Of a stretch of 64,000 nt of DNA, positions 46,443 through 62,640 are shown in pieces; the first letter of the stretch is position 1; the number at the start of each line of letters is the position of its first letter. The notes beneath the pieces are model-generated. The model had not been told where the DNA came from. It searched no databases and saw nothing but the letters and a program-made list of their open reading frames with translations. Position numbers and translations under genes: made by a program. The stretch comes from Thermodesulfovibrionales bacterium (lineage in GTDB: Bacteria; Nitrospirota; Thermodesulfovibrionia; Thermodesulfovibrionales; SM23-35). The DNA is taken from NCBI GenBank assembly GCA_963715195.1, contig CAVQRT010000025.1, positions 1-64,000 on the forward strand, in the 5' to 3' direction.

Positions 46443-46863
46443 AGCAAATTTGGTCCTACCAAATTTGCAGTTGTTAGTTTTCAGGTAACAGTTATCAGGA
46501 AAGAGCCTGAGAACGAATAACTGACAGCTAAAAACTGCAAACTTGTGATACAAGTTTGTTTGTTCTTTGACAACAGAAGGGAAGAGTAAGGGTCAAGTTA
46601 GGAAGGGCATATGGTGGATGCCAAGGCATCAGGAGGCGACGAAGGACGTGGCAGGCTACGAAAATCCACGGGGAGCTGCGAGCGAGCGTTGATCCGTGGG
46701 AGTCCGAATGGGGCAACCCATGCCGATTAAAATCGGCATATCGTATGCTGAACACATAGGCATACGAAGCGAACCCGGGGAAGTGAAACATCTCAGTACC
46801 TGGAGGAAGAGAAATCAAGCGAGATTCCCTCAGTAGCGGCGAGCGAAGGGGGAAGAGCCCAAA

Positions 46864-46989
46864 CCCAGCCTAACACAGACAGTTTAAGGGTTAAAGGGGT
46901 AGATAGGGTAAAGGTTGGAAGACATTGAGGTTTTTGAACCTTTAAACCGTTAGACCATCAAACGTTTAAACTCTGTGTGTTAGGTTGGG
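46864..46989 (+). other. 23S insertion 1 (domain I variable helix)
   Basis: cccagcctaacaca...tgtgttaggttggg stem, 126 nt where a short helix is usual. Confidence 0.75.
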
Positions 46990-47192
46990 GGTTGTAGGAC
47001 CGCACAAGTAGGAATACTGTATGGTAGCTGAATGTTCTGGAAAGGACATCCGGAGGGGGTGACAGGCCCGTAGGCGAAACGATACAGACACCGAAGCGGT
47101 ATCCTGAGTACCACGGGGCACGTGGAACCCTGTGGGAAGCTGGGGGGACCACCCTCCAAGGCTAAAGACTCCCTGATGACCGATAGTGGACG

Positions 47193-47223
<31 letters not shown>

Positions 47224-47274
47224 GGTGAAGGGAGTGAAATAGAACCTGAAACCGTATGCCTACAAGCAATCAGA

Positions 47275-47432
47275 GCCGTGCAGTAGTACGGAAGCTCCAA
47301 TGACCAATCACCAAGAAACAAATAAAGACCAATGATCGGAATTCAATGATCGAAGGGAGACTGTTTTCTTGATAAAGGGAATGTATTTGTACCTTGGAAT
47401 TTGGAAATTGGGATTTCCATGCTATGCATGGT
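47275..47432 (+). other. 23S intervening sequence at helix 25
   Basis: Long stem between tacaagca and gtgccttttg. Confidence 0.8.
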
Positions 47433-48047
47433 GATGGTGTGCCTTTTGATTAATGAGCCGGCGAGTTACTGGCTGTAGCGAGGTTAATCCCGTTGACGGG
47501 AGGAGCCGTAGGGAAACCGAGTCTTAACAGGGCGAATGAGTTACAGTTAGTAGACCCGAAGCCAGGTGATCTACCCATGGACAGGGTGAAGCGAAGGTAA
47601 GACTTCGTGGAGGCCCGAACCGATGTTTGTTGCAAAAAGCTCGGATGAGCTGTGGGTAGGGGTGAAAGGCCAATCAAACCTGGTGATAGCTGGTTCTCCC
47701 CGAAATGTATTTAGGTACAGCCTCAGTGCAGTCTTATGGGGGTAGGGCACTGGATGGGCTAGGGCCTCATAAGGGGTACCAAACCCAACCAAACCGCGAA
47801 TACCATGGAGATGGTCACTGGGAGTGAGACTGCGGGTGCTAAGATTCGTAGTCGAGAGGGAAACAGCCCAGACCGTCAGCTAAGGTCCCTAAGGGTATGC
47901 TCAGTGGTAAAGGATGTGGTGTTGCGCAGACAGCCAGGATGTTGGCTTAGAAGCAGCCATCATTGAAAGAAAGCGTAACAGCTCACTGGTCAAGCGACAC
48001 TGCGCCGAAAATGTAACGGGGCTCAAGCATATCACCGAAGCTACGGA

Positions 48048-48199
48048 CTTCAGTGCTTCGCACTGGAAATTCTAAATTCGAGTATCTAAATCCTAAACAA
48101 ATTCAAATGATCGAAATACAAAATATTTGAAACGATTGACGAGGAGTTTAGAATGTATTTGGATTTAGTGCTTAGAGCTTCCACTGCGGAGCATTGGAG
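48048..48199 (+). other. 23S intervening sequence at helix 45
   Basis: Long stem between accgaagct and ggtaggggagc. Confidence 0.8.
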
Positions 48200-48891
48200 T
48201 GGTAGGGGAGCATTCTGTAGGCCTGTGAAGGCGTGCCGTGAGGCATGCTGGAGGTGGCAGAAGAGATTATGCCGGCATAAGTAGCGCAAATTCTGATGAA
48301 AAGTCAGGACGCCGTAAACCTAAGGTTTCCTGGGGAAGGGACATCCGCCCAGGGTTAGTCGGACCTAAGGCGAGGCCGAGAGGCGTAGCTGATGGACAAC
48401 TGGTTAATATTCCAGTACCGTCTTGTGTGCGTTTGACTGAAGGGGTGACGCAGGAGGATAGTCCGGGCCTGGTGATGGTTCAGGTCCAAGCGTTGAGGCT
48501 GGTGGTCAGGCAAATCCGGCCACCGTAAAAGCCGGGGCGTGATGGGGAAGGCCGTAAGGCTGAACCCGGGTGATTTCACACTGACGAGAAAACCCTCGTA
48601 GGGAGCACATGGGATGACCGTACCGCAAACCGACACTGGTAGGTGGGTAGAAGATACCAAGGCGTTCGAGAGAACCCTCGCTAAGGAACTCGGCAAAGTG
48701 ACCCCGTAACTTCGGGAGAAGGGGTTCCACCGTAAGGTGGACGCAGTAAAGAGGCTCAGGCGACTGTTTAGCAAAAACACAGGTGTCTGCGAACTCGCAA
48801 GAGGAGGTATAGGCACTGACGCCTGCCCGGTGCCGGAAGGTTAATGGGAGAGGTCATCTTCGCAAGGGGAGAAGCCTTGAACTGAAGCCCT

Positions 48892-48962
<71 letters not shown>

Positions 48963-49045
48963 TGAATGGCGTAACGATCTGAGCGCTGTCTCGGCGAGGG
49001 GCTCGGCGAACTTGAGATACCGGTGAAGACGCCGGTTACCTGCAA

Positions 49046-49083
<38 letters not shown>

Positions 49084-49402
49084 GCAGTGAGCTTTGGTGA
49101 TGTATGTGTAGGATAGGTGGGAGGCGGTGAAGTGGGGACGTTAGTTTCCATGGAGCCAACGTTGAAATACCACCCTTACCTTACTGGGGCTCTAACCTGT
49201 CCCCCTGATCGGGGGAAGGAACACTGTCTGGTGGGTAGTTTGACTGGGGCGGTCGCCTCCCAAAGAGTAACGGAGGCGTCCAAAGGTCTCCTCAGGCTGG
49301 ACGGAAACCAGCTGTCGAGTGCAAAGGCATAAGGAGGCTTAACTGTGAGGCTGACGGGCCGAGCAGATACGAAAGTAGGGCTTAGTGATCCGGTGGCACT
49401 GA

Positions 49403-49453
<51 letters not shown>

Positions 49454-49534
49454 TATCGGGTCCAAGAGTTCACATCGACGACCCGGTTTGGCACCTCGAT
49501 GTCGACTCATCGCATCCTGGAGCTGAAGCAGGTT

Positions 49535-49566
<32 letters not shown>

Positions 49567-49575
49567 TACGAGAGT

Positions 49576-49612
<37 letters not shown>

Positions 49613-49641
49613 TGTTGCAGGCGCAGGAGACTTGAGGGGTT

Positions 49642-49672
<31 letters not shown>

Positions 49673-49979
49673 AGACCTCTGGTGTTCCGGTTGTCATGCC
49701 CGTGGCAATGCCGGGTAGCTATGTCTGGATGGGATAAACGCTGAAGGCATCTAAGCGTGAAGCCCGCCCCAAGATGAGGTCTCCCGTGGAGTAATCCACC
49801 TGAAGGTCTGTGGTAGACTACCACGTCGATAGGCTGGAGGTGTACGTGCAGTAATGCATTCAGCTGACCAGTACTAATAGACCGTGCGACTTGACCCTTA
49901 TTTTATCCCTCCTGTTGTCAAAGAGAACTTGAAATTCGCAGTATTTCGGTGGTAAAATTTTCAACACGAATACGCGGTT

Positions 49980-55008: not shown

Positions 55009-56334
55009 CAGAAGTGTCCGACAGTTTTTTACATAGAAGCATATAACTTATTGAAAGCATAACATAAAAATGACATCAGCACCTGTTATCGACTTGAAAT
55101 ATTTTCAGCCAGTCCGTCATCGTTCCGGGGACACCCGGAAGGAGATGACACATGTACACTGGAAAGCTAATATTTTCCCAAGTCTTGGACTTCATGCCAA
55201 TGCACACATTTCGCCGTTGCGTCGCTCGCTATCACGGAGACCGCAATGTCCGAAGCTTCACATGTCTCGATCAATATCTCTGTATGGCCTTTGCTCAACT
55301 GACATATCGGGAGAGCCTTCGCGATATCGAAGCCTGTCTCCGTGCACAACAGCAGAAGTTGTACCACATGGGCATTCGCGGCACCGTCGCAAAGTCCAAT
55401 CTCGCCGATGCCAACGAACAGCGGTCTTGGCATATATATGCAGACCTTGCCCATTCATTAATCATCACAGCCCGAACACTTTACAGCAACGAGCCATTCG
55501 GAATCGATCTGGAGCAAACTGTATATGCACTGGATGCCACAACTATCGATCTGTGTCTCTCGATGTTTCCATGGGCTCCGTTCCGTCAGAGCAAAGCAGC
55601 AATCAAACTGCATACACTTCTGGACCTCCGGGGCAACATTCCAACATTTATCTACATTTCCGATGGCACCGTGCACGATGTAAATATCCTCGATGTACTT
55701 CCAATAGAGCCGGGCGCCTTCTATGTAATGGATCGTGGTTATCTGGATTACGCCAGACTCAACGCCATATCTCTGTCAGCAGGTTTCTTTGTGACTCGCT
55801 CAAAATCCAATCTCAGATGTCGAAGAATCTATTCTCATCAGATCGACCGCGCAACGGGTCTCCGGTACGATCAGACAATTATGCTGACCGGATTCTATTC
55901 GCTCAGGGACTATCCAACCAAACTGAGACGTATCAAGTATTACGATGCCGACACCAACAAAACTCTGATTTTTCTGACCAACAATTTCGCCCTGCCAGCA
56001 CTCACTATCGCACAGCTTTACCGTTGCCGATGGCAGGTAGAACTTTTCTTCAAGTGGATCAAGCAAAACCTGCGCATCAAGAATTTCTATGGCACTTCAG
56101 AGAATGCTGTCAAAACTCAAATCTGGATCGCTATCTCAGTATACGTCTTGGTCGCCATACTCAAAAAGCGGCTCAATATCCCGATAAGTCTCTACACAAT
56201 TCTACAAATATTGAGCGTCACGGTTTTCGAAAGAATTCCGTTGTTACAGTTACTTACGGAAACAGTCCTGGCAGAGGAAATCTTAGATTCCCAAAACCAG
56301 TTGAATTTATTCACTTAACTGTCGGACGTAGATG
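55009..56334 (+). mobile_element. IS4-family insertion sequence
   Basis: Terminal inverted repeats cagaagtgtccgacagtt / aactgtcggacgtagatg around a DDE transposase; no clear target duplication. Confidence 0.88.
55152..56318 (+). CDS. IS4-family DDE transposase (DUF4372 + DDE_Tnp_1)
   Basis: LDAT, MDRGY, YRCRWQVELFFKWIKQ (YREK motif). Confidence 0.95.
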   Translation: MYTGKLIFSQVLDFMPMHTFRRCVARYHGDRNVRSFTCLDQYLCMAFAQLTYRESLRDIEACLRAQQQKLYHMGIRGTVAKSNLADANEQRSWHIYADLAHSLIITARTLYSNEPFGIDLEQTVYALDATTIDLCLSMFPWAPFRQSKAAIKLHTLLDLRGNIPTFIYISDGTVHDVNILDVLPIEPGAFYVMDRGYLDYARLNAISLSAGFFVTRSKSNLRCRRIYSHQIDRATGLRYDQTIMLTGFYSLRDYPTKLRRIKYYDADTNKTLIFLTNNFALPALTIAQLYRCRWQVELFFKWIKQNLRIKNFYGTSENAVKTQIWIAISVYVLVAILKKRLNIPISLYTILQILSVTVFERIPLLQLLTETVLAEEILDSQNQLNLFT

Positions 56335-57294: not shown

Positions 57295-58517
57295 AGTCTC
57301 TCCATTAGCAGTTATTCTTTAGGCTACTTACAAAGTTAAGATTAATAAATGAAAGCAGTGACCTGCATTGACTATGTGGGAATGATGACCTTTATGGTGC
57401 TTGCAAGATTTATAGCCACTTGCTATATGACAAGACAGAGTAAGTCCGAATGATAAAACAGGTTATCTATGAATTTAAAAATGGCAAGGTAAACATCTCG
57501 CCTTTTTTAATGCGTATCTCCTCTGTTAATCATTAACTTTTTGCCATCACTTGATTCTAAGGACTTGTAGGAGGTGAACGAAAAACCCTGAAAAGCATCT
57601 GTCGGCTAACAGATGTTTTTTCGTTTTAAGAAGTTTATTTTTGTCGATTCTCTTTTGAAGTTGACATCCAATTAGAAACGGCCTCTCTATTTAGTTGATG
57701 AAGTCATCCTCAATATTTGAAAAATCTCAAGACTGTTGAGTATTAGGTGAAGGCTTGCCCTCTACCCAAGCCTGAAAAGGTGTTTATGTCAGGAAGGCAT
57801 CTTCCTGCATCTTTCGAAAGGAAGTCTTGCCGGCTCAGAAAAGCAATCGGACATGCACATTTTAACAGGGATTAAACGATGTCAATAAGGCTCAGGGGTG
57901 ATAATAACTATGTGTCAGAGAGCAGGTGGTTTTTCGTGCCCGTCTATTATGCAAAGAAAGAAACATATCCTTAAATTTAGAAATAACGTTTGCTTCTGTG
58001 GTATGCCGTGTAAAACGTATGACTTGTCGGTTAAAGTCCGACCGTGGGAGTTCGGTAGTTCACCCACGTAGCTTGAGGGAGGTGTAAAGGGTAACCTGAA
58101 GCACTAAGTTTCCTGACAAAGGCTCCGAAAGGGAGCTGAGCAAACCTGCGGGTTGCAGCGAGAAGCGAACCCAGATGTAGCCTCGAAATGCACAATGGAG
58201 TTGTCGACCCTCTCCTACAAAGGGGAAGACCGGAGCATCTATCCTAACAAAAACTACCATAACCGATAGATGGACTTCCGGGGTAACAGGGGTGACACGC
58301 AGGGGAAGCCATACGACAATGAACACGGGAGACCCTTGCCGATGCTCTTCAGGACAGCAACCGGTGGATATAAGGAAACGAAGTTTCACCGGGTCGGCAA
58401 GGGAGTCGGAGTTGCCCATAGTACCGTTGGTATCTCAAAGACAACATAACTTTGAGAGAGGGAAGGGGCAATACTTTTATCACGTTTCCGAAGAAGAGAA
58501 GGAAAGGAGATTGCGGA

Positions 58518-59844
58518 ATGCTGAAAACTCCAGAAAAGATCCGGGAACTTCAGAGGAAACTATACCAGAAGGCCAAGCAGGAAAAGGAGTACCGATTCTA
58601 TCTTCTCTATGACAAGGTGTACAGGCTGGATATCCTGAACCATGCCTATAATCTTGTCAAAGCGAACAAAGGAGCACCGGGAATAGATGGTGAAACCTTT
58701 GAAAGCATAGAGGAGAGGGAAGGAGGAGTAAAGGGATATCTTGAAGAGATTGCCGGAGAACTGAAGCGGAAGGAGTATAAGCCGAAGCCTGTACGAAGGG
58801 TATATATTCCGAAGCCAGATGGCGGCAAGCGACCGCTGGGAATCCCGACAATCAAAGACAGGGTAGTGCAGATGGCGGTAAAGATAGTGATTGAGCCCAT
58901 ATTTGAAGCCGACTTTCAGGATAACTCGTACGGATTCAGGCCGAAGCGGAGTGCCCATCAGGCGGTGGATGATGTAAAGGAGCATCTCTGACAAGGCAAG
59001 ACTGAAGGTAATCGATGCCGATATCTCCAAGTACTTTGACACCATTCCCCACGACAAACTTATGCAACTGGTAGCAAAGCGAATAGTGGACAAGAACATA
59101 CTTGAGACTGATTAAGATGTGGTTGAAAGCACCGATTGTGGAGGAACGTGAGGATGGCAAGAAAGAGTACAAGGGGAATGATAAGGGGACTCCACAGGGA
59201 GGGGTAATCTCACCGCTTCTGGCCAACATCTACCTGAATGTTCTGGATACCTTATGGAAAGTCAAGAAAGTGCAGGAGAGATTGGGTGCACGGCTCGTCC
59301 GTTATGCGGACGATGTTGTCGTATTGTGCAAAGGCAACACCGACCGGGTACTGAAAGGGTTAAAAACTGTTCTGAGAGACCTTGGGCTGACCCTGAATGA
59401 GGAAAAGACAAAAGTCGTGGATGCACGGCAGGAGAGCTTTCACCTTTCTGGGGTTCCGCATTGTTATGAGGAAAGGGCGGAAGAGTCGGACGTCTATTCC
59501 CTCTCATTGAGCCGTCCAAGAAGGCAATGAAGCATATCCGATCAGAAATCAAGCAATTGACCACTGAGCGGTATAGTGCGACCCCGACTGAGATCGTAAT
59601 CCGCAGAGTTAATGAAGTCGTCAGAGGATGGGTTGGCTATTTCTACTATGGCAACTGCACCTAAGCAATGTCTGCTCTGAGATATTATCTGGCTATAGGA
59701 TGCGTATATATCTGCGCCGGAAACATCATTTTCGTAGCCTATGGCTATAAGGCGTTTCCGGATAAATATTATTATGAGTCCTTAGGCCTGTACAAAGTCC
59801 CAACAACTGCTCCATGGACTCAATCTGCGAAAGCCCCTGGATGA
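58518..59844 (+). pseudogene. ltrA: Outer intron reverse transcriptase/maturase with several frameshifts
   Basis: [31 protein letters not shown] in different frames. Confidence 0.9.
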
Positions 59845-59887
59845 AGATAATCGGAAAGCCGTATTCGGGAAAACTGAACGTACGGTT

Positions 59888-61829
59888 GTGTGTCCAGCAA
59901 AGGCTGGTGTGTTCAGCAGGAGACAGTCCTGCCATGGCAACAGTCAGAAGCCATGTAGTTAGGATGGCAGGGTAAAGGGAAACCGATATCCTGAAGCCCA
60001 TCGACACTGTCATCTGAAGGATGATAACGAGTTGCCAGGCCGCAACGAAAGTGAACGCGGAGGTGGCCCCGAAAATACGGAGCCCTGAAGGCCGAGCTTT
60101 CAACCGTAGGGCGAAGGCAGCATGGATAACCGAAAACTGATTGAAACGGTTATTCCACTTCAGTGGGGTGATAACGGCGGCATGGCAGCAAGGACACACC
60201 GAGCAACTGGAGAAGCCCTAACTGCCCCGGCGAGAAATCGCCGGAGCAAGGTAAGTCCTATAACCGGAGACACTGGGAAGTGGACTGAAGGCGGAAGGGT
60301 GACGGATGGGCCAGTAGTAGCGATGAAGCAGGGTAATGCTTGTGGAGCGAAGAGGCCCTACTTTTGGCATTTCTCTAACAACAATGGAAGGCAGGGATGA
60401 GATGACAAAGACATCCGTTAGTCTGCAGGACCTGAGGAGGAGAATATACGTCAAGGCGAAAGCCGACAAGCAGCATCGGTTTTGGGGATTGTACGTTCAT
60501 GTATGCAAGATGGAGGTGCTCCAAGCTGCCTACGTCATGGCCAAAGAGAATAATGGGGCACCTGGAACTGATGGTGTCACCTTTGAAGCCATTGAGGGAA
60601 GCGGTCGCGAAGAGTTTCTTCTGAGTATACAGAGAGAACTACTTTCAGGGAGATACCTGCCTATGCGAAATCGACGGAAAGAAATACCCAAAGGAAATGG
60701 GAAATTACGTATTCTTGGGATACCGACTATCCGTGATCGAATAGTGCAGGGAGCGCTTAAACTTGTTCTTGAACCGATCTTTGAAGCTGACTTTCAGGAG
60801 GGTTCATACGGGTATCGCCCGAAACGAACGGCGCATCAGGCGGTGCACCGAATCGCAGATGCGATCGTTCACAATAAGACACAAGTCATCGATGTTGACC
60901 TCAAGGCGTATTTTGATACGGTGCGTCATGACCTATTGTTGAAAAAGATAGCCAGAAGGGTCGACGATTACAAAGTGATGTGGCTGCTGCGACTCATACT
61001 AAAAGCTAGCGGTAAGCGTGGAGTTCCACAGGGTGGGGTAGTCTCACCCCTCTTGTCAAATATCTACCTAAATGAGGTGGATAGGATGCTTGAGAAGGCG
61101 AAGGCGGTGACGGGTAAATCTGGCTTTACCTATATCGAGTACGCTCGCTTTGCAGATGACCTTGTGATACTGGTAGACGGGTATCGACGTTGGAACTGGT
61201 TACTACAGAGGGCATATCGACGACTTCTTGAAGAGTTGGCGAGACTGGATGTAAAAGTTAACGAAGAAAAGACCCAAGTCGTAGACCTGACGAAAGGGGA
61301 GAGCTTTAGCTTTGTGGGGTTCGACATACGGAGGATTATAACACTCAGTGGGAAATGGGGGCTACGCATCACCCCGAGGATGAAGGCGCGGACAAATCTC
61401 TTGAGAAATCTTAAAGAGATTTTCCAGCGATTCATGTCTCAACCTGTTGAACGCGTGATTGAGTTGATCAACCCGAAACTCCGAGGCTGGGTTAATTACT
61501 TTCGGATAGGGCATTCCAGTCGATGTTTTAGTTATGTAAAGGATTGGGTCGAGAAGAAAATAAGACGTCATCTCATGAGATCTCGAAAACGTAAGGGCTT
61601 TGGCTGGGACAGGTGGAGTAGAGACTGGTTTTACTGTCACCTCAGGCTTTATGCTGATTATAAGGTGAGGTACTACGGACTCAAAAGCACTGCCGGCAAA
61701 TAGGCACCATAACCCTTGTAGTGAAGCCGAAAGGAAAGCATAGTGCGGGAAATCTGCATGCTATGTTTGACGAGGCGGGGGCTGGAGACGTGCAGAATTC
61801 CTCTGATACGCGCCAGTCCTCGACCCTAC
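59888..61829 (+). mobile_element. Inner group II intron, apparently intact
   Basis: 5' GTGTG; domain V aagcatagtgcgggaaatctgcatgctatgttt; 3' end cctcgaccctac; EBS1 aaccgt 60102-60107 complements the flank acggtt. Confidence 0.92.
60402..61703 (+). CDS. ltrA: Group II intron reverse transcriptase/maturase, no endonuclease domain
   Basis: LGIPTIRDR, DVDLKAYFD, GVPQGG, RFADD, LRGWVNYF. Confidence 0.95.
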   Translation: MTKTSVSLQDLRRRIYVKAKADKQHRFWGLYVHVCKMEVLQAAYVMAKENNGAPGTDGVTFEAIEGSGREEFLLSIQRELLSGRYLPMRNRRKEIPKGNGKLRILGIPTIRDRIVQGALKLVLEPIFEADFQEGSYGYRPKRTAHQAVHRIADAIVHNKTQVIDVDLKAYFDTVRHDLLLKKIARRVDDYKVMWLLRLILKASGKRGVPQGGVVSPLLSNIYLNEVDRMLEKAKAVTGKSGFTYIEYARFADDLVILVDGYRRWNWLLQRAYRRLLEELARLDVKVNEEKTQVVDLTKGESFSFVGFDIRRIITLSGKWGLRITPRMKARTNLLRNLKEIFQRFMSQPVERVIELINPKLRGWVNYFRIGHSSRCFSYVKDWVEKKIRRHLMRSRKRKGFGWDRWSRDWFYCHLRLYADYKVRYYGLKSTAGK

Positions 61830-62122
61830 TGATGAGGGGGAGCTGGAGATAGGGCCAATCGACTACTACGCCAGTTCTCTACTCTACTGCAGCAGTTTTG
61901 CCCGATGAACCAATTTGGAGTCTTCCTTCATCTACTCAACACAATGGCTGATTCTATCGGAATGTGACTTTCCTCTCCATAATAAATAAATCAGTGGCAG
62001 ATGAGAGACGTGATTTTCCATTTCAAAGACAAAAGTGCTACAAAGTTACACGGTGTCGAATTCCAGGAGAACTGTTGAGATTCTTGCGGCCTGCTCTCTC
62101 TACATATGAAAGGGACAGAGTC

Positions 62123-62461
62123 TTATGGTTTTCCTCGAACAATCTCTATAACCTTGTCGATGACTTCAGTGATTTTCCCCTGCTTCAGGTTGCCAACCCG
62201 GTACAGAACAGTATGGCTATCAGCAGTAAAGAGGCGATTCGGTCTTATATTACTCGGCTGCTTGAGACTACCGGTCTCAAAATCGCTGTCGTCAATGGGA
62301 AGAGAGTACATATCCTGCACGAACTTGCTGGTTATCTGGCAAAGAATGACATCATCACCCTCAAGGTTTGCGATGACAAAAGCTGGACGGCGCTTGGATT
62401 CGGTAAGGTCGGAGAAGGGGAATGGAATAACAATGACATCCCCCCTTACAAACTTTGCCAA
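62123..62461 (-). CDS. PemK/MazF-family toxin
   Basis: RGDVIVIPFPFSD...KRRPA...CQITS. Confidence 0.92.
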   Translation of the reverse strand: MAKFVRGDVIVIPFPFSDLTESKRRPAFVIANLEGDDVILCQITSKFVQDMYSLPIDDSDFETGSLKQPSNIRPNRLFTADSHTVLYRVGNLKQGKITEVIDKVIEIVRGKP

Positions 62462-62640
62462 GCCGCGTCCTCTTCGGGCAAGAGCCAGTCTTTCCTGAGT
62501 GATGATTCGCTGGCAATGGCAGTGTCAAGTTTTTCTCTAATGATCTTGGACTTCAGGAAGTGGACAAAATCCAAAACCTCGTCAAGACATGACTCGGGAA
62601 CCTGCTCGATCTCCTGGATCAGTATTTCCTTCTTGCTCAT
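62446..62640 (-). CDS. DUF2281-like antitoxin
   Basis: EVLDFVHFLK...ASESSLRKDW..PEED.AW; overlaps the toxin start. Confidence 0.85.
   Translation of the reverse strand: MSKKEILIQEIEQVPESCLDEVLDFVHFLKSKIIREKLDTAIASESSLRKDWLLPEEDAAWQSL

Follow-up and report, generated by a model that had tools for sequence, protein, structure and literature searches.

Endonuclease-less group II introns inserted in the catalytic domain V of other group II introns

The window that we analysed, a stretch of 64,000 nucleotides of contig CAVQRT010000025.1 from a Thermodesulfovibrionales bacterium (assembly GCA_963715195.1), contains one group II intron inside the catalytic domain V (DV) of another. Known targets of bacterial group II introns are terminators, start and stop codons, and motifs of reverse transcriptase (RT) genes. 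The locus raises the question of whether the invading intron is addressed to DV itself and, if so, how it deals with its own DV. The two introns are made up as follows.

58001..59887, +: 5′ portion of the outer (host) group II intron, starting GTATG and spanning DI-DIV plus the part of DV that precedes the insertion; Rfam group-II-D1D4-4 at 58024-58163, 89.6 bits
58214..58219, +: EBS1 presumed for the outer intron from its sequence and from the flanks of relatives
58518..59844, +: RT/maturase gene of the outer intron, broken (tblastn against the intact relative L208)
59856..59887, +: host DV, AGC triad at 59857-59859; its 3′ strand supplies IBS2 (-12 to -9) and IBS1 (59881-59887)
59888..61829, +: inner group II intron, complete; Rfam D1D4-4 (RF02003) at 59914-60050, 111.7 bits
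60075..60078, +: EBS2 core of the inner intron (covariation with target positions -9 to -12)
60102..60108, +: EBS1 of the inner intron, pairing with -1 to -7 (covariation z 5.6-10.2 on the diagonal; retargeted relatives)
60171..60171, +: EBS3 of the inner intron (A), pairing with +1 (T61830; covariation)
60402..61703, +: inner RT/maturase, intact, 433 aa, FADD motif; Pfam RVT_1 and GIIM only
61736..61768, +: own DV of the inner intron, which retains the AGC triad but has changes in both strands of the basal helix; its 3′ hexamer reads TATGTT
61769..61829, +: inner DVI (fold), with a presumed branch A at 61823, a position read off the sequence
61830..61887, +: 3′ portion of the outer intron (final DV base and DVI), judged from its fold, a 90% match to the host on contig C15 and empty alleles
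61881, +: presumed branch A of the outer intron (fold)

The inner intron is 1,942 nt long and runs from 5′ GTGTG to 3′ AC, in keeping with the 5′ GUGYG and 3′ AY of mobile group II introns. Its DI-DIV ribozyme fold, a DV with the AGC triad and a DVI with a bulged A are all present, as judged from folds and the RF02003 match, and the RT/maturase ORF sits in DIV. The Pfam matches leave no endonuclease (En) domain in this protein, and its translation has FADD in place of YADD in RT5, which characterises class F group g2. The RT is 49.9% identical to that of B.th.I3 of pBMB67 (g2) versus 37.4% to that of Ni.ha.I1 (g3), and an RT tree with only these two references gave a support of 0.76. On these sequence features, the inner intron is En-less and class F/g2-like. 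Class F and g2 intron-encoded proteins are described in similar terms, as RT-X proteins of about 430 aa that lack En and carry FADD, in introns of 1.9-2.0 kb (PMC3552965, PMC3753933).

The insertion falls between the last two nucleotides of the host DV, so excision of the inner intron joins 59887 to 61830. The sequence-only reading had claimed that removing 59888-61829 restores a DV-DVI junction, and this was borne out by the intact empty allele in L208, in which an identical DV runs across this junction into an identical start of DVI, and which reaches 47.2 bits with Rfam RF00029 (cut-off 40). That reading had also suggested matches of Rfam Intron_gpII at both DV copies as a check, which failed: the outer DV reached a sub-threshold 27.4 bits and the inner DV had no match at E<=1. 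Since the insertion lies at the foot of DV, the host hairpin (59857-59887) still folds with the invader in place (-12.4 kcal/mol, z -3.0). Relatives of the outer intron share its starting motif although their flanks differ, which supports the start at 58001; nested on the same strand with precise ends, the two introns form a twintron. The 59887-61830 joint also occurs in all four sequencing runs examined, but we rejected it as a sign of splicing, because DNA runs contain it too and it thus reflects empty relatives.

The complementarity between EBS1 (AACCGT, 60102-60107) and the flank ACGGTT, noted earlier from the sequence, is likewise upheld: it covaries beyond chance and extends to seven nucleotides, A60108 facing the T at -7. 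Across the lineage, all three binding sites covary with the target, EBS1 with -1 to -7, EBS2 with about -9 to -12 and EBS3 with +1, and EBS3 is complementary to +1 in 65 of 77 loci versus 39.8 expected. In the window copy the EBS2 pairing is weak, matching the target at only two of four pairs. The covariation scan lent no support to a pairing between EBS2 and the 5′ strand of that DV.

The same genome holds a second copy on contig C15. It is 99.95% identical (one base differs) and occupies the same DV position in a different, ORF-less host; the two hosts are 85-90% identical to each other. By their sequences these are two independent insertions, and two such similar copies suggest that the inner intron moved recently. 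Both lie in a DV, though 96 other sites in the genome match IBS1 and IBS3. Two related hosts on contig C16 are empty; these differ at -7, but the base found there, like their DVI type, also occurs among invaded hosts elsewhere.

To see where relatives sit, we considered the best 80 of 581 and the best 80 of 491 candidate stretches and counted a locus as related if its RT was at least 60% identical (126 loci among the matches listed). The tabulation of insertion sites, proposed with the idea of an intron specialised on other introns, agrees with that idea: 87 of the 126 related loci listed occupy the same DV position in other introns, versus none of seven more distant ones (<60% identity). The corresponding figures are 74 of 113 distinct flanks among the loci listed and 53 of 79 after dereplication. 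We report two DV calls, a strict hairpin test and a similarity test, the latter added because the former overlooked evident DVs; null trials gave 16 calls in 13,300 shuffles, and a 99th-percentile cut-off was set with IBS1 held fixed. About six of the 39 listed loci not called as DV look like DV by eye, and the others include ectopic sites with a DV-type EBS1 (L101, L102, L107, L124-127) and retargeted sub-lineages.

In the RT tree, each of the two main branches of a clade (support 0.98) contains DV sites, and the hosts belong to several classes. In one Burkholderia record, four identical copies each occupy a different host DV (L144/146/148/150). At 50% identity, twelve intact host RTs fall into seven clusters, and three Rfam D1-D4 models are represented among the hosts that lack an ORF; among 40 hosts, counted without a matched control, the RT is intact in 12, broken in 5 and missing in 23. 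Together with the two insertions in this genome and the binding sites that track DV, these hosts support specialisation well, and the invader might be said to parasitise other introns. Viral contigs yielded only four relatives of 38-39% identity, with 5′ ends that could not be located. Scanned for the junction pattern, 401 genomes gave matches in 38, but the control also matched often, and 8 of 10 loci examined were not introns, the only real loci being those of G301 and G064/G058.

It is very likely, in our judgement, that a widespread lineage of En-less, class F/g2-like retro-introns targets the 3′ strand of DV in other group II introns, at a site immediately 5′ of the last host DV base, by a mechanism that general group II intron biology would suggest. 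The inner intron would be transcribed together with its host, its RT would aid its splicing, and this splicing would restore the host DV-DVI junction. The RNP would then reverse-splice into DNA, with copying primed at a replication fork in place of an endonuclease. Because DV is the most conserved element of group II introns, most other such introns, including ORF-less and broken ones, would offer ready-made and mostly harmless landing sites. The invader would have to open the host DV in order to pair. While it remains unspliced the host DV hairpin can presumably form, but DVI is then 1.9 kb distant, which should prevent branching and exon ligation of the host; for these two steps it is structurally reasonable that the outer intron would splice only after the inner.

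In the window the order of splicing is possibly moot. The outer RT gene has an in-frame stop at 58989-58991, three frame changes and later stops, and no intact RT of its family was found in this assembly. The presumed outer EBS1 forms only three Watson-Crick pairs and one G-U pair of six with its 5′ flank, and the empty outer site lies within no reading frame. Taken together, these features suggest that the outer intron probably no longer splices.

Other explanations were considered. An assembly artefact might be suspected, since intron copies are repeats and no sequencing run screened contains half of the sequence words, but the exact junction recurs on two contigs with different hosts, in the relative L207, in metagenome contigs and in the complete plasmid records L184 and L185, the latter an intact copy from Bradyrhizobium, and we regard an artefact as extremely improbable. 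A single old insertion carried along as a composite element, by co-mobility or duplication, would fit multi-copy sets that have one host DV in common (L172-L181). It is contradicted by inner copies that are 99.95-100% identical in hosts that differ (85-90% identity in this genome, different RT clusters in L144-150), and is very improbable. We also consider it unlikely that specificity is loose, with a short EBS1 match, and that DV sites accumulate only because insertions elsewhere are purged. By a lenient count 18 of 79 loci are ectopic insertions with a DV-type EBS1, and the poor EBS2 match of the window copy points the same way; however, EBS2 and EBS3 vary with the DV sequence of the host throughout the lineage, insertion at many intergenic sites would do no more harm, and none of the seven more distant relatives is at a DV.

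A more even question is what the altered DV of the lineage itself means. The target bases are altered in 150 of 154 lineage copies, which suggests self-avoidance; only four have the canonical hexamer. Of 79 loci, 73 have an EBS1 that pairs with the real target at five or more of six positions, but only 7 have one that pairs this well with their own DV. For the window inner intron the EBS1 duplex is worth -0.6 kcal/mol on its own DV versus -7.2 on the real target; among 53 cases compared, the duplex is weaker on the own DV in 50. Lineage-type hexamers occur in none of 69 distinct host DVs. We would lean slightly towards the view that the altered DV probably limits self-insertion and was selected for that role. 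It is quite possible, on the other hand, that DV targeting is real and the altered DV a neutral or catalysis-related trait. On the tree the change maps largely to a single event; the basal member L096, itself at a non-DV site, already has it, and retargeted members mostly keep it; a within-lineage permutation test of self-avoidance, a weak test, gave P of about 0.056; L101 has an EBS1 that matches its own canonical DV at 6/6, and L027 is a lineage member invaded by another. Against neutrality, there are more than eight different altered hexamers and almost never the canonical one, three of the four canonical-DV members (L077, L078, L091) have a retargeted EBS1 and are nested inside the clade, and members with the near-canonical own hexamer TCGGTT carry a shifted EBS1 (TTCCGT).

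No lineage locus among 27 reached the RF00029 cut-off, versus all 12 canonical DV-DVI controls, so censuses that start from this model may undercount the lineage. A bolder reading, which we offer tentatively and hold to be not quite probable, joins these observations: a cross-phylum lineage would address the conserved catalytic domain, escape self-targeting by a recoded basal helix of its own DV, re-tune EBS1 to recoded DVs (L027) in a self/non-self arms race within an active-site helix of the ribozyme, and be missed by standard DV-based surveys.

Introns that target introns, and a single DV twintron, are already published. M.a.I5, UA.I3, P.l.I2 and B.th.I3 (sensu Tourasse & Kolsto) form an En-less lineage whose EBS1 and EBS2 also read a conserved retroelement motif and which also forms twintrons. 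Its target is the RYADD coding motif of RT genes, and it cannot use ORF-less hosts (PMC2504315), whereas the lineage described here targets a ribozyme domain and the window's inner intron lies in DV, outside the ORF. The g2 intron B.th.I3 of pBMB67, 50% identical and the only g2 member compared by sequence, is not in a DV. In Thermosynechococcus elongatus, identical TeI3 (F3) introns within diverged TeI4 (F1) introns were similarly read as recent independent insertions, but these inner introns are ORF-less, lie between the first two ATGs in DIV and involve close relatives within one genome (PMC2882425). According to the summary in PMC8393795, the psbF twintron of Euglena gracilis likewise has a group II intron inside DV of another, a likeness at the level of the domain, but it is one isolated organellar example, within a coding gene, with no mobile DV-targeting lineage described. 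Tr.e.I7/I8 of Trichodesmium is also a bacterial twintron, with sequential splicing shown in vivo, but its inner intron is in domain I and it interrupts a protein gene (PMC4649490). The accessible parts of PMC3552965 (including Table S2) and PMC3753933 mention no DV insertion sites of class F/g2 introns, nor did those of PMC3534033 and PMC5572947 yield any DV insertion, and PMC8637638 matched only through a reference; a literature search whose reach excluded Simon 2008 and Hafez & Hausner 2015 found no DV-targeting lineage.

The lineage would represent a further target strategy for bacterial group II introns, directed at the catalytic domain itself. A DV-directed element could gain a foothold in most other introns and might limit how far these spread. 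The natural DV variants of the lineage map which bases beside the catalytic triad can change, and, as splicing and homing would both need the target hairpin to be opened, the role of target structure becomes testable.

Two group II introns lie on the same strand of the window, the inner one (the invader) being inserted between the final two nucleotides of domain V (DV) of the outer one (the host).

58024-58163, outer intron: group-II-D1D4-4 match (Rfam)
59888-61829, inner intron: 1,942 nt
59914-60050, inner intron: group-II-D1D4-4 match (Rfam)

The inner intron encodes an intact RT/maturase of 433 aa without an endonuclease domain. The outer intron begins at 58001; its relatives start at the same motif, with differing flanks. 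The sequence-only reading held that removing the inner intron restores a junction between DV and domain VI (DVI), and this was borne out by L208, an empty relative of the outer intron, in which the junction is uninterrupted, DV and the start of DVI are identical to those of the outer intron, and the Rfam Intron_gpII model RF00029 scores 47.2 bits. Compared with L208, the outer RT gene has one in-frame stop and three frame changes, and no intact RT of the outer family turned up when the assembly (97.8% complete) was searched with tblastn. The window's host intron is probably inactive and intergenic. Just past it lies a PemK/MazF-like toxin gene (Pfam; 62123-62461, minus strand), and a small ORF upstream of that gene (about 62500-62640, minus strand) may be its antitoxin. 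Elsewhere in the window, a 388-aa ORF (55152-56318, plus strand) is presumably an IS4-family transposase, and the 23S rRNA gene (46591-49898) exceeds the Rfam model by ~380 nt, its alignment showing a 109-nt insertion and a longer one that are possible intervening sequences.

On contig C15 of this genome the inner intron recurs, with one base changed, at the same DV position in another host, which lacks an ORF and shares 85-90% identity with the window's host. Contig C16 holds two further host-family copies, both ORF-less and empty. Since 96 sites genome-wide match the 7-nt IBS1 plus IBS3 besides the two occupied ones, these two elements alone fail to explain why both copies are in a DV. Examination of 18 host-family loci placed the DV in 12, including both empty C16 copies, and one of the 12 (L207) carries an invader relative at the same point. 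The DVI of both empty hosts (L006) resembles that of some invader-family introns (L013, L024, L103), a likeness that suggests DVI exchange between the families.

For a wider view, 178 distinct loci with related RTs were sampled from four sources: 4 are viral, 14 (including both own copies, after removal of a duplicate) come from a set of 401 genomes in the phylum, and the remainder are the 80 top-ranked each of 581 metagenome and 491 genome stretches. The intron 5′ end could be placed in 145 (33 dropped), and 133 of these had a flank of at least 38 nt (12 more dropped); 126 loci have an RT at least 60% identical to the inner RT, and 7 are more distant. A strict DV hairpin test was passed by 72 of the 126 (shuffles, 16/13,300), and 74 passed a similarity test with 11 independent DVs as reference. 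The sequence-only reading proposed an intron specialised on other introns, and tabulating the homologues' insertion sites agrees: 87/126 loci pass either DV test, corresponding to 74/113 distinct flanks, versus 0/7 among the distant loci, fractions that describe only this sample of top-ranked (best 80 of 581, best 80 of 491) and mutually related loci. About six further loci look like DVs by eye, and dereplication at 95% leaves 53/79. Both main branches of the clade (FastTree support 0.98) contain DV sites, whose record labels include Acidobacteriota, alpha-, beta- and deltaproteobacteria, Chlorobiaceae, Rhodothermales, Spirochaetia, Victivallales and Terrimicrobiaceae, and the same junction is present in complete plasmids of Paraburkholderia and Bradyrhizobium. 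In the genome-stretch sample (best 80 of 491), the closest named relatives are labelled Nitrospirota. We consider it very likely that the nested feature is real and exemplifies a broad lineage that specialises in the DV of other group II introns.

Some loci show other arrangements. In L021, L040, L049 and L079, lineage introns are joined directly end-to-start to another intron copy, for which tandem insertion and a circle-derived origin are candidate readings. L091 and L161, with a non-DV 5′ flank and a 3′ flank resembling a host DV end plus DVI, are probable recombinants between nested introns.

The invaded hosts were surveyed at the 40 distinct DV sites preceded by 2.3 kb of sequence. The host RT is intact at 12, in pieces at 5 and absent at 23; the intact ones are 29-39% identical to the invader RT and form 7 clusters at 50%. 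In 10 of 18 scanned RT-less cases, Rfam D1-D4 matches (three models) start ~560-770 nt upstream, so these hosts are ORF-less introns, while several other RT-less hosts resemble intron remnants. In a single Burkholderia record, four invaders of identical sequence each occupy a different host DV, and of 11 junction matches in genome G301, all nine examined are at whole or partial DVs. Such sequence comparisons establish both the target position and independent insertions into it. In L155 (253-2986), at least four ORF-less group II introns of 675 nt form a head-to-tail array, with an invader in the DV of the next array unit.

Target recognition was assigned by scanning 88 dereplicated introns for covariation between each aligned intron column and each flank position. 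EBS1 (60102-60108, with -1 to -7), EBS2 (60075-60078, with -9 to -12) and EBS3 (60171, with +1) are among the top signals, which also include off-diagonal ones reflecting the relatedness of the introns. The window copy matches fully at EBS1 and EBS3 and at 2/4 positions of EBS2; in PMC3753933, the class E and F introns assayed spliced in vitro without needing EBS2. In retargeted members (e.g. L014, L077, L096, L109-L114, L130), EBS1 and flank change together. Two retargeted sub-lineages (L109-L114; L046, L080, L130, L133, L152) have sites in or beside repeated non-DV DNA hairpins, and hairpin preference may be a separate trait.

The invader's own DV retains the AGC triad, but its basal helix is altered on both strands: the canonical hexamer stands at the equivalent site in 4/154 lineage copies versus 5/6 more distant relatives. 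EBS1 pairs at 5/6 or better with the real target in 73/79 introns and with the own DV in 7/79; counting Watson-Crick pairs only, it matches the canonical hexamer in 57/79 and the own hexamer in 3/79. None of the 154 located own DVs is interrupted. Among 10 more whose DV was not located, L027 carries within its own DV a second lineage member, which has an EBS1 that fits this variant DV exactly and a clean junction at the 5′ side only; this invaded DV lies inside a rearranged nest (1690-2960). Self-avoidance by the altered own DV is plausible, although not established. Against selection for it count the placement of the change on about one tree branch, the result of shuffling own DVs among members (P ~0.056), the retention of the altered DV by most retargeted members, and L101, whose EBS1 matches its own DV 6/6. 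The RF00029 cut-off is reached by 0/27 lineage loci versus 12/12 canonical controls; as the four canonical-hexamer members are also missed, the altered hexamer is not the sole cause.

Bacterial twintrons and introns homing into other introns are already published (reviewed in PMC4424553), including the RYADD-homing relatives of M.a.I5 (PMC2504315), TeI3 nested in TeI4 (PMC2882425) and a Trichodesmium twintron (PMC4649490); one organellar DV twintron, in Euglena psbF, is summarised in PMC8393795. The inner RT fits class F group g2 (PMC3552965) by its FADD motif and 49.9% identity to B.th.I3. The pipelines of PMC4028801 and PMC8919778 dropped or missed twintrons, as stated there. Full-text searches, covering few subscription papers, turned up no description of a DV-targeting lineage, though one may already have been mentioned elsewhere. 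Simon et al. 2008 reportedly described specialised lineages.

As a mechanism, the invader's RNP would reverse-splice into DNA and then rely on priming at the replication fork, the route that PMC4424553 describes for En-less introns. The host DV hairpin 5′ of the insertion is predicted still to fold (-12.4 kcal/mol) and to exceed the EBS1-IBS1 duplex (-7.2 kcal/mol) in stability, so that the invader would have to open it. Splicing of the invader would restore the host junction; with its DVI displaced by 1.9 kb, the host is not expected to branch before the invader has gone.
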